Source: an uncultured Acidobacteriota bacterium
GTDB lineage: Bacteria > Acidobacteriota > Thermoanaerobaculia > Multivoradales > DATKCC01
Length of the DNA stretch: 64,000 nt
Assembly (NCBI GenBank): GCA_963843755.1
Contig: CAWJLS010000012.1
Span: 4,001 to 68,000, forward strand
Direction: 5' to 3'
In this document: piece after piece, positions 9,629-53,267 of the stretch
Position numbering within the stretch: the first letter of the stretch is position 1
Layout: every line of letters starts with the position of its first letter
Made by a program: the position numbers and the translations under genes
The notes under the pieces: generated by a model
The model's input: only the letters and a program-made list of their open reading frames with translations
Databases searched by the model: none
Told to the model about the DNA's origin: nothing

Positions 9629-9787
9629 AGCAGTTCCCTCCTACTCAAGATGAACGGGATTGCGGAATGTCGGTGCTGCGCCCCCGGGCGGCGGCGCGGA
9701 AAGCTCGGAGGTCACGTTAACACAAGGCCTGCAAGGGTCCTGCCGCCCGTGAGGGTAGGTGGCGACGAGGGTGGGAGACGAGGGGGA

Positions 9788-9812
9788 GAGGTCTGCCGGG
9801 AGCGTCCGGGAG
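9788..9812 (+). repeat. 25-bp terminal motif GAGGTCTGCCGGGAGCGTCCGGGAG (left inverted repeat)
   Basis: Exact reverse complement of 11395-11419. The core also occurs at 52923-52938 and 53183-53198. Confidence 0.85.
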
Positions 9813-9911
9813 GGCGGGTGCCTGGGGACGGCGCAAGGACTGGAGGGTTGGGGGACAAGCTCGCGCCTTCTACCCGTTTCCACGGCCACCCGTTCCGGCA
9901 TGAGAAGCTGA

Positions 9912-10616
9912 GTGCCTATGGCACGAGCTCGCCGACCCGCTGCTGAGTACATCGGGCCGACAACGCTCCGGCTCCCAGCTACACCTATCAAGCTGGTCTA
10001 CCTCGACCTCAATCACTGGATCTCCCTCGCCAAAGCCCAGGCCGGCCATCCAGATGGCGCCCAGCGCCGAGATGCCCTTGCGGCTTGCTCCAATGCGTTC
10101 AATCGTCACTCCACTGTCTTTCCGATCTCTGACACGATCTACTTCGAGACGTCGAAGATTCAGCGATATCGCCAACGTCGAGATCTGCGCGAAGTCATCG
10201 AGCAAGTCTCTCGGTTCATCGTGATCACCAGCCGCTCAGTCATCTCGACCCATGAGATTGAAAGCCTAGTGGACCATCTCGTTGGACCGAACCCGAAGCC
10301 TGTCTACACGATGAGCTACGTGGACTGGGGAGTGGCTCGCGCGTTCGGAGCGGCGGGCGGCTTTCGGGTCCAGTCGAGCGACGGAGCGGACGTCACTGGA
10401 GAGGTCCGAGAACGGCATCCGGACGGCCCCGAAGCCTTCGATCAGGCGTTGGCGGACGCAGAGCTCGAGCTCGACAGGAAGGTGCTCGAGGGGCCAACTG
10501 CCGAAGAAGAGCCTGAGCTTCGAAGCCTCGGGTGGGACCCTTTGGGGGCTTTCTCGATCATGGAGCGACGAGCCCTCGTCCCCACACTCCGACCTGGGGA
10601 CCCTCAGTCCTCGTGA
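9912..10616 (+). CDS. Hypothetical protein with a PIN-like N-terminus, probably C-terminally truncated
   Basis: 234-aa ORF with an LVYLDLNHWI motif (strand-D-x-N, as at PIN-domain N-termini). It uses visibly more A/T-ending codons than its neighbours and ends shortly after a palindrome. Confidence 0.55.
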   Translation: MPMARARRPAAEYIGPTTLRLPATPIKLVYLDLNHWISLAKAQAGHPDGAQRRDALAACSNAFNRHSTVFPISDTIYFETSKIQRYRQRRDLREVIEQVSRFIVITSRSVISTHEIESLVDHLVGPNPKPVYTMSYVDWGVARAFGAAGGFRVQSSDGADVTGEVRERHPDGPEAFDQALADAELELDRKVLEGPTAEEEPELRSLGWDPLGAFSIMERRALVPTLRPGDPQSS

Positions 10617-10657
10617 GGCGAAAACGATCCTGCTCCTCCTGCGATAGTCTCGCCCTC

Positions 10658-11047
10658 ATGGATTGGGAGCGATTGATCGTGGAGGCAGCGGCGGCGCGCG
10701 ACCGGGCGCATGCGCCGTACAGCGGATATCGGGTGGGCGCGGCGTTGCTGTTCGAGGACGGCGAGGTGGTGACGGGGTGCAACGTGGAAAACCGGTTGCC
10801 GTCCCTGGCCGTCTGCGCCGAGCGCGTCGCCTTGACGCGGGCGATCGTCGAAGGCCAGACCTGGCCGATCGCCATGGTCGTGGTGACTGAGTCTCATCCC
10901 CCGGCGGCGCCGTGCGGCCTGTGCCTGGAATCGCTGGCAGAGTTCGTCGAAGATCTCCCGATCCTGCTGGTCAACGCCGACGGTGAGCGCGAAGAGGTCC
11001 GGCTTCAGCAGCTCCTCACCCGTCGGTTCACCCTGCCGACGAACTGA
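10658..11047 (+). CDS. cdd: Cytidine deaminase (homotetrameric type)
   Basis: APYS..RVGAAL, GCNVEN, CAER and PCGLC zinc ligands. Confidence 0.9.
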   Translation: MDWERLIVEAAAARDRAHAPYSGYRVGAALLFEDGEVVTGCNVENRLPSLAVCAERVALTRAIVEGQTWPIAMVVVTESHPPAAPCGLCLESLAEFVEDLPILLVNADGEREEVRLQQLLTRRFTLPTN

Positions 11048-11242
11048 GTCGACCCCCGAACGCTCGACCCCTACCTTCTCCGCACGGGGTCAGGAAGACG
11101 CCCTCGCCCCATCAACTGGACCGCCCCCTGACTCCCTCGGCGCTCTCCGCTCTCACGGAGAACGAGGAAGGCCCCCACCCCGGCCATCTTCTCCGACCAT
11201 CTCGTGGTCCGGGGGGGGGGGGGGGACGAGCGGTTCGACCAC

Positions 11243-11419
11243 GGAGCGTCCGGGAGAGAGGGGCGTAGAGGGGCGCTGGCGGCCGCGTCCGCGACGGCCT
11301 CCGAGCAGCCGGGCCGGCCCGACGCGGACGCCAACGAGCCGCGCGTTGATCCCCCAGCCGTCCAGTTCGCGCGGCGTCCCCTCCGAGCCCCTCTCTCCCG
11401 GACGCTCCCGGCAGACCTC
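11243..11419. repeat. Structured dispersed repeat (MITE/REPIN-like or ncRNA), copy 1
   Basis: A perfect 22-bp stem (11243-11264/11387-11408) encloses two internal hairpins. The architecture and 22-nt loop are shared with 52920-53202. Confidence 0.7.
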
Positions 11420-52919: not shown

Positions 52920-53202
52920 GGAGGGTCTGCCGGGAGCGAGACGGGAGGCCCGTCTGACGGACACCTCCGCACCCGCCTCTCTACACCCTCGACCCGGAGC
53001 GACGACTGGCGAGCGTTCCGCGGGTGGAGCGGGTCGGAAGGCCTGGTCCGGAGGGCGCTGAGGAGCGCGCCCGCGGACCCGCCTGAGCTTGCAGCCAGGA
53101 CCGGCGCGCCCCGAACCGAGGCGGCCGTTGATCTCCCAGCCGTCCAGTTCGGCCGCCGTCCCGGAGGACAGGCCTTCCGGCCCGCTCCCGGCAGACCCCT
53201 CC
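52920..53202. mobile_element. ~280-bp non-coding element with terminal inverted repeats (MITE/REPIN-like); structured repeat copy 2
   Basis: Perfect 16-bp TIR GGGTCTGCCGGGAGCG (52923-52938/53183-53198). The internal three-stem structure matches 11243-11419. Confidence 0.6.
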
Positions 53203-53267
53203 CTACCTCCCTCCCTCGCCAGCCCCTTCGCTCCCGGCAGCCCCCCGCCCACGGTAGACTCCCCGCC

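Follow-up and report, generated by a model that had tools for sequence, protein, structure and literature searches.

A dispersed family of branched foldback repeats in Acidobacteriota that resembles REPIN and MITE elements

Structured intergenic repeats have been well studied in Proteobacteria but hardly at all in Acidobacteriota. Several bacterial MITEs form long hairpins (e.g., Correia, ERIC/IRU, RUP and Nezha), and active REPIN or MITE families usually hold near-identical copies. The attC sites of integrons are recombination sites formed by a folded bottom strand, and the cassettes that they border often carry toxin-antitoxin genes. REP, BIME and REPIN sequences are dispersed and extragenic, often just past gene ends; inverted dimers predominate, and recognition is believed to be of a folded single strand (PMC3116915, PMC3733652). 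In REPINs the doublets are head-to-head or inverted with the REP starts about 71 bp apart, compensatory changes keep the hairpins, and a branched 'clover' has been proposed as an alternative fold (PMC3116915). For REP dimers, head-to-head arrangement, compensated hairpins and frequent heterodimers are described in PMC3733652, as are acidobacterial Y1 transposases with long inverted repeats of their own.

The element considered here, called an arm in what follows, shares much with these systems. Like REP and REPIN sequences, arms are dispersed and extragenic, often just past gene ends; neighbouring copies are mostly inverted (16 of 22 pairs in the (-,+) orientation) and are often of different subfamilies, 27 of 43 consensus pairs carry compensatory changes, and a folded single strand is the form proposed to be recognised. 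In contrast to REP and REPIN sequences, an arm is a three-way junction of 172-240 nt and not a hairpin of 20-40 nt or a doublet whose REP starts are ~71 bp apart (PMC3116915). REP sequences have a conserved unpaired GTAG or CGTC tag at one end of the palindrome, and arms appear to have no invariant tag of this kind. None is present at the outer stem, P1; CGTC occurs at the foot of the second stem, P2, in two subfamilies, with CGCT in a third. Partners are separated by wide and uneven distances (186-4121 nt) in which genes can lie, no two copies are nearly identical, and, unlike in a REPtron, no RAYT or TIRYT gene is flanked by arms among the Y1 genes examined. With MITEs, arms have in common their size class, their intergenic and noncoding character, their presence or absence at orthologous sites, and self-complementary ends, since P1 (18-22 bp) joins the two ends of the arm in the manner of a terminal inverted repeat. 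They differ in that no target-site duplication and no parent IS with the same ends were found and all copies are diverged. The terminal stem varies and the internal loops are conserved, the reverse of what is seen in the terminal inverted repeats bound by a transposase. Conservation of structure over sequence, one active strand and linkage to toxin-antitoxin cassettes are features also of attC sites; arms, however, occur mostly as inverted pairs or solo over 12 contigs and not as a same-orientation array beside an integrase. Because of their size, branched fold, variable terminal stem and wide, gene-holding spacing, and because no linked enzyme, duplication or recent copy was found, arms are treated here as a variant of this kind of element that belongs neither to REP/REPIN nor to any MITE family with a name.

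Two arms lie in the window, i.e., the whole 64,000-nt stretch of DNA that was analysed. A sequence-only reading had described them as one fold built twice from different stem sequences, and the sequence read-out agrees with its coordinates and pairings. P1 of copy 1 (11243-11264/11387-11408) has 22 bp and is perfect; that of copy 2 (53026-53045/53169-53188) has 20 bp including one T-G pair. P2 pairs in both copies despite different letters (CCGCGTC/GACGCGG in copy 1, GCGCGCC/GGCGCGC in copy 2). The third stem, P3, is also paired in both and differs in sequence (11338-11345/11368-11375 in copy 1, GGCGGCCG/CGGCCGCC in copy 2). Of the 22 loop positions, 21 agree between the two copies, and the tail CGCTCCCGGCAGACC closes the 3' end of each. 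Searches of the window placed the 22-nt loop at exactly two sites, 11346-11367 and 53128-53149, with none in 100 shuffles; the tail is present twice more in inverted orientation, at 9790-9804 and 52924-52938. As RNA, copy 1 is predicted to fold with -119.9 kcal/mol (z -6.7 versus shuffles) and copy 2 with -107.4 kcal/mol (z -4.4). The features of the window that belong to the arms are the following.

11243..11419, + strand: core of arm copy 1 (covariance model (CM) match of 135 bits, C12:15243-15417; consensus structure)
~11276-11289/11321-11334, 11346-11367 and 11409-11419, + strand: P2, loop and tail of copy 1 (sequence)
11186..11242, + strand: optional 5' modules of copy 1, consisting of CATCTTCTCCGACCATCTCGTGGTCC, 15 G (11211-11225) and then the conserved ACGAGCGGTTCG stretch
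9778..9896, - strand: partial arm that consists of the 3' half and forms an inverted pair with copy 1 (nhmmer 51 bits, CM 53 bits)
9912..11047, + strand: segment inside the inverted pair, with a 234-aa ORF (9912-10616) and a cytidine deaminase gene (to 11047) (Pfam, PADLOC, G+C)
53007..53201, + strand: arm copy 2 (CM match of 157 bits, C12:57026-57197; sequence)
53007-53025, 53026-53198, 53128-53149 and 53189-53197, + strand: conserved 5' stretch, core, loop and tail of copy 2 (sequence)
52924..52960, - strand: short inverted fragment of an arm 3' end (GGTCTGCCGGGAGCG...; motif, 18-mer match)
53229..53243, + strand: second tail-like motif CGCTCCCGGCAGCCC, 31 nt past the tail of copy 2 (one mismatch)

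The outer 23 nt of the partial arm (9790-9812) are the perfect reverse complement of 11395-11417. The inverted fragment near copy 2 lies 66 nt upstream of P1 (84 nt from the 18-mer match to the start of P1). Pfam matches identify the genes next to the arms of the window as a HAD hydrolase, a cytidine deaminase, a diacylglycerol-kinase-like gene and an enoyl-CoA hydratase. Promoter and terminator scans detected no sigma-70-like promoter and no intrinsic terminator around either copy. The run of 15 G at 11211-11225, directly upstream of copy 1, is probably a place prone to length errors in the assembly or to slippage; many arms have such a run, and its length varies.

The genome from which the window comes (G000; 5.05 Mb, 13 contigs, 71% G+C, 82% complete) contains many more copies, as do related genomes, so that the search for further copies that had been proposed as a check gave a clear answer by pattern, profile and CM alike. 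The loop pattern with at most three mismatches matches 32 sites in this genome, and the reversed control none. A profile built from 35 copies and iterated once with nhmmer gives 85 matches, of which 68 are near-full at 80 bits or more, and a CM built from 60 copies gives 75 matches among the candidates scored. Arms are present on 12 of the 13 contigs. The core, counted from the first base of P1 to the tail, is 166-177 nt long. Just 5' of P1 most copies have a stretch of ~20 nt (ACGARCG..CGC), and in about 26 of 68 copies an additional upstream module of ~45 nt with a poly-G run extends the element to a maximum of ~240 nt. The loop had been called near-invariant. This is true of the two copies of the window; across the family only the loop core C.CCA[AG]CC is kept and the remainder varies.

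Folding of the 60-copy alignment with RNAalifold yields a three-way junction of 43 pairs, 27 of them with compensatory change. P1 has 18 bp and two short extensions, P2 is stacked on it, and the hairpin P3 closes a loop of ~22-24 nt. Standard pairs fill 96.7% of the cells, compared with 82.2% when partners are shuffled and 41-49% when they are slid, and the cells changed on both sides number 353 versus 106 in shuffles. None of 500 shuffles reached any of the five pairing measures. With covariation this far above the controls, and in so many copies, the earlier inference of selection on a folded RNA or ssDNA is supported. The same fold is kept between genera: in an alignment of 20 CM matches (two of them weak or partial), which leans towards the model because it was fitted to it, double changes occur in 34 of the 43 pairs and the stem sequences differ.

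Comparison of nearest-neighbour copies (44 pairs, mean identity 86%) gives the same picture at shorter distance. There are 90 compensated double changes against 17 uncompensated ones, together with 50 single changes that pass through G·U and 71 single breaks. Paired columns differ by 9% and unpaired columns by 20%, and compensation is far above what independent drift would give at 9% divergence. Conservation is found in the junction (GGAGGGCGTC.., ..CCGAGG.. and ..CCGTCCC), at the foot of P2 and in some segments of the loops. The most variable columns are the interiors of P1 and P3. Mismatches are asymmetric, with 69 G·T against 16 A·C (46 against 14 if one subfamily-specific pair is left out), which indicates that the folded strand is the one given by the sequence-only reading and fits either RNA or ssDNA. 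G·T is the least destabilising mismatch in ssDNA as well, so the asymmetry does not single out RNA. Inspection by eye suggests that there may also be a small hairpin, P0, on the 5' side and that the poly-G run might pair with the C-rich loop.

The distribution of arms is narrow. CM E-values are rough, and counts per genome refer to the candidates scored; on this basis eight of the nine other genomes of the same bacterial family carry arms, with 3-26 CM matches each in five genera. In other families of the order, 2 of 31 genomes have one weak CM match each, and in the rest of the class no CM match was found in 140 genomes, for each of which 19 candidates were scored. Within the set of genomes searched, arms are limited to a single bacterial family. 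A degenerate loop pattern, matched exactly in one genome per species, produced three single matches in unrelated taxa, which were taken as chance. Independent wetland metagenome contigs pile up on copy 2 to a depth of 156 (~25 alongside) and leave the window sequence at 53008/53010 and 53201/53202, the same borders as those of the element. Two DNA metagenome runs compared with the window gave no usable joint across an arm. In one relative (G005:C5:1385423-1436843), five CM matches form a local cluster in 51 kb of one contig.

The family had not been recognised from its sequence, and no match in Rfam was obtained at gathering or E-value thresholds. The whole window had no match in Rfam 15 at the gathering score, and in E-value mode both copies had chance-level matches only (best E 0.12, with 21 bits where the gathering score is 64); Rfam ribozyme classes did not match the arms. 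Full-text literature searches on miniature inverted repeats and on structured RNAs and repeats in Acidobacteriota, and on repetitive sequences in Thermoanaerobaculia, turned up no description of the family. The most similar two of 66 copies are 93.6% identical, and most are at or below 89%. In this genome the family seems to be old, or inactive at present.

Arms are intergenic, and their two ends are placed differently. Gene boundaries were obtained with a crude GC3-based caller, and distances to start codons are lower bounds. On that basis 37 of 66 copies have their 3' tail no more than 60 nt from a gene boundary, which in 26 is where a convergent gene ends and in 11 where a co-directional gene has its first possible start; only 1 of 65 has its 5' end this close. 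The median distance is 54.5 nt for the tail versus 403 nt for the 5' end. The tail of 39 of the 66 copies faces the end of a convergent gene and not a start.

About half of the arms are solo. Where neighbouring element matches lie less than 6 kb apart (n=22), 16 are (-,+), i.e., with 5' ends inward and tails outward, five are in tandem and one is (+,-); the only (+,-) interval holds rlmH and dksA. Partners are 186-4121 nt apart. Eleven of the (-,+) pairs enclose 186-899 nt, with a PIN gene inside one of them. Comparison of ten short spacers (eight with near-full arms on both sides) and of the 0.9-kb interior of a pair on C10 shows that they are unique, mutually unrelated and lower in G+C; the spacers of the short pairs have no repeats elsewhere and share no sequence. 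Partner arms are usually not each other's closest relatives (rank 2-32 or no match in eight pairs). Together with the unique spacers, this gives no support to the idea that a pair moves as a unit. A search for the inverted tail of each arm itself within 3 kb upstream identified a partner for only 7 of 66 copies, a test that is too strict because partners belong to other subfamilies. The ORFs inside six (-,+) pairs with gaps of 0.9-4.1 kb were scanned for cargo, with the following contents.

(-,+) pair: NACHT-LRR protein and KAP NTPase matching QatA/PifA models
(-,+) pair: HepT/MNT pair
(-,+) pair: AAA ATPase and TPR protein
(-,+) pair: VapB-like gene
(-,+) pair: PIN gene
(-,+) pair of the window: 234-aa ORF and cytidine deaminase gene (cdd)

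The 234-aa ORF has no Pfam or PADLOC match and is lower in G+C (0.51-0.67 per 100 nt).

Arm positions are not conserved between genera. When the loci of relatives were compared with the source genome, the flanking ORF could be matched for 13 of 18, and at only one of these 13 does the source genome have an element within 3 kb, in a different gap. An empty site has been found once in each direction. G008 carries a 640-nt nested foldback insertion that has an arm on its right-hand side and perfect terminal inverted repeats of 14 nt; it stands between two convergent genes that only 7 nt separate in the source genome. Conversely, the segment 9790-11419 of the window, bounded by a 23-nt perfect inverted repeat, is absent in G001 and G004, where the genes that flank the missing 1.6 kb are separated by 190 and 126 nt. 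Neither the insertion in the window (left side ending in ...GGGGGAGA, right side beginning with TCCCCTAC) nor that in G008 has an evident direct repeat beside it, the exact ends being uncertain. In G003, cdd is next to the HAD gene with no arm, and the gap contains other small hairpin repeats. Two tandem copies of such a repeat (CCTCTCCTCCCCCCGGGGGGAGGAGAGG...) fill this cdd-HAD gap, where the source genome has its arm, at L093:670-880.

An autonomous element with the same ends, either a RAYT or a transposase gene, had been named as something to look for, and none was found among the genes examined. The source genome, at 82% completeness, has no match to RVT_1, TnpB (Cas12f1-like_TNB) or PDDEXK_3. 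It does have two Y1_Tnp and two IS110-type genes, none of them near the arms listed. A CM search with filters off detected no arm in the 6-kb surroundings of either Y1_Tnp gene, and the inverted repeats around these two genes proved unrelated to arms. Ends of IS200/IS605 elements or a TnpB omega-RNA were also considered and rejected, there being no TnpB match in this genome and no adjacent Y1 gene; a tRNA-like or bridge-RNA/omega-RNA origin was dropped for want of linked genes. In G005 and G007, none of the listed arms adjoins a Y1 gene. In G006, the only member of the bacterial family without arms, there are seven Y1 genes, so that Y1_Tnp and arms have no phyletic link. The ORFs scanned inside the six (-,+) pairs include no recombinase and no autonomous IS with the same ends. 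The IS110-type transposase matches, in ORFs of 441 and 197 aa, lie side by side at G000:C5:315480-318072, away from any arm.

The sequence-only reading had offered a noncoding RNA, a REPIN or MITE recognised by a transposase in trans, and a protein-binding element. Of the three the second fits best, because positions are non-orthologous, sites are either occupied or empty and arms form inverted pairs. With modest confidence, arms are regarded here as REP/REPIN/MITE-like non-autonomous mobile elements that are recognised as a folded single strand. The scatter of intergenic copies, their restriction to one lineage, turnover, tail-outward pairs and compensation on one strand all point to the way of life of REP/REPIN sequences and hairpin MITEs. 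An enzyme acting in trans would recognise the folded strand, most plausibly as ssDNA and not as RNA. The loops and the junction would be its recognition surface, and only copies that still fold would then be propagated. Arms would land between genes with the 3' tail against a gene boundary, and would accumulate as tail-outward inverted pairs with unique spacers or accessory genes between them. The enzyme might be a Y1/HUH transposase, though this is no more than a candidate. Against mobility stand the lack of an autonomous copy or adjacent enzyme among the genes searched, of a definable target-site duplication and of recent copies; conserved loops with covarying stems would suit a functional RNA equally. 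IS608-type elements prefer the lagging-strand template. The folded strand of the arms has a modest bias to the C-rich strand of the local GC skew (46 versus 22 of 68 copies), opposite to that preference.

A different and clearly less probable explanation is that arms are structured RNA elements retained by the host, each kept at its own locus by selection and mobile only in the past. They might then form modules of 5' leaders or 3' ends, insulate or terminate transcription, be targets of an RNase or work as small RNAs. The pattern of conservation is that of a functional RNA, with junction and loops conserved and stem interiors variable with compensation. Paired columns differ less than unpaired ones, G·T mismatches far outnumber A·C ones, and every copy is diverged (at most 93.6% identity) and yet 96.7% of the pairs hold. 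A separate promoter would hardly fit in a gap of 60 nt or less, so the 11 of 66 copies whose tails lie that close to the first possible start of a co-directional gene (by the crude caller) are probably transcribed in sense. However, some 70 copies are found beside unrelated genes (e.g., those for a HAD hydrolase, an enoyl-CoA hydratase and a DAG kinase), 39 of 66 face a convergent gene end, and positions are not conserved between genera, sites being present or absent. The window copies showed no promoter or terminator in the scans, Rfam contains no relative, and the excess of G·T over A·C is compatible with ssDNA too. A riboswitch or leader of one gene class was rejected, since the genes beside the arms are of unrelated kinds and the majority of copies face the end of a gene.

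It is unlikely that arms are folded single-strand recombination sites, an analogue of attC without an array, belonging to an undescribed lineage-specific system that inserts or exchanges accessory-gene cassettes such as toxin-antitoxin pairs and STAND/KAP defence NTPases between tail-outward inverted arms. The orientation rule is strong (16 (-,+) against 1 (+,-)), all six scanned (-,+) pairs (gaps of 0.9-4.1 kb) enclose genes of accessory type, and at the corresponding site of G001 and G004 the entire segment between the arms of the window is absent; the conservation of structure over sequence and the single active strand would be expected as well. No recombinase is linked to any arm examined, however, and arms are dispersed instead of arrayed beside an integrase, with about half of them solo. 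Partners are usually of different subfamilies, and eleven pairs enclose just 186-899 nt, the ten short spacers compared being unique and unrelated. In addition, the cdd gene of G003 is next to the same HAD gene without any arm, so that cargo and arms may have arrived separately. A chance resemblance or an artefact of assembly, for which the 15-G run beside copy 1 could be cited, is already refuted by dozens of diverged copies on 12 of 13 contigs, by arms in eight other genomes and in independent wetland metagenome contigs (depth peak 156), and by shuffle controls of zero.

Arms thus show the REP/REPIN way of life in a far larger, branched fold. Their conserved junction and loops present a clear recognition surface with no known partner enzyme. 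If the partner were found, it would give a new element-enzyme pair and might reveal a new route by which toxin-antitoxin and defence genes are moved. About 70 very stable folds of 170-240 nt also affect how these genomes are assembled and how their gene boundaries, terminators and small RNAs are predicted, and the CM built here can be used to annotate arms in them.

Arms are not the only dispersed repeat in the source genome. A second one, ~60-80 nt long with a 12-bp hairpin (CCCTCTTCCCCC..GGGGGAAGAGGG, then ACGCC), has been observed at C5:563774-563939, C9:225397-225605, C11:77401-77434, C13:170552 and C2:195772. It is often in tandem or just upstream of arms, and its opposite strand reads like a CGTC-tagged REP.
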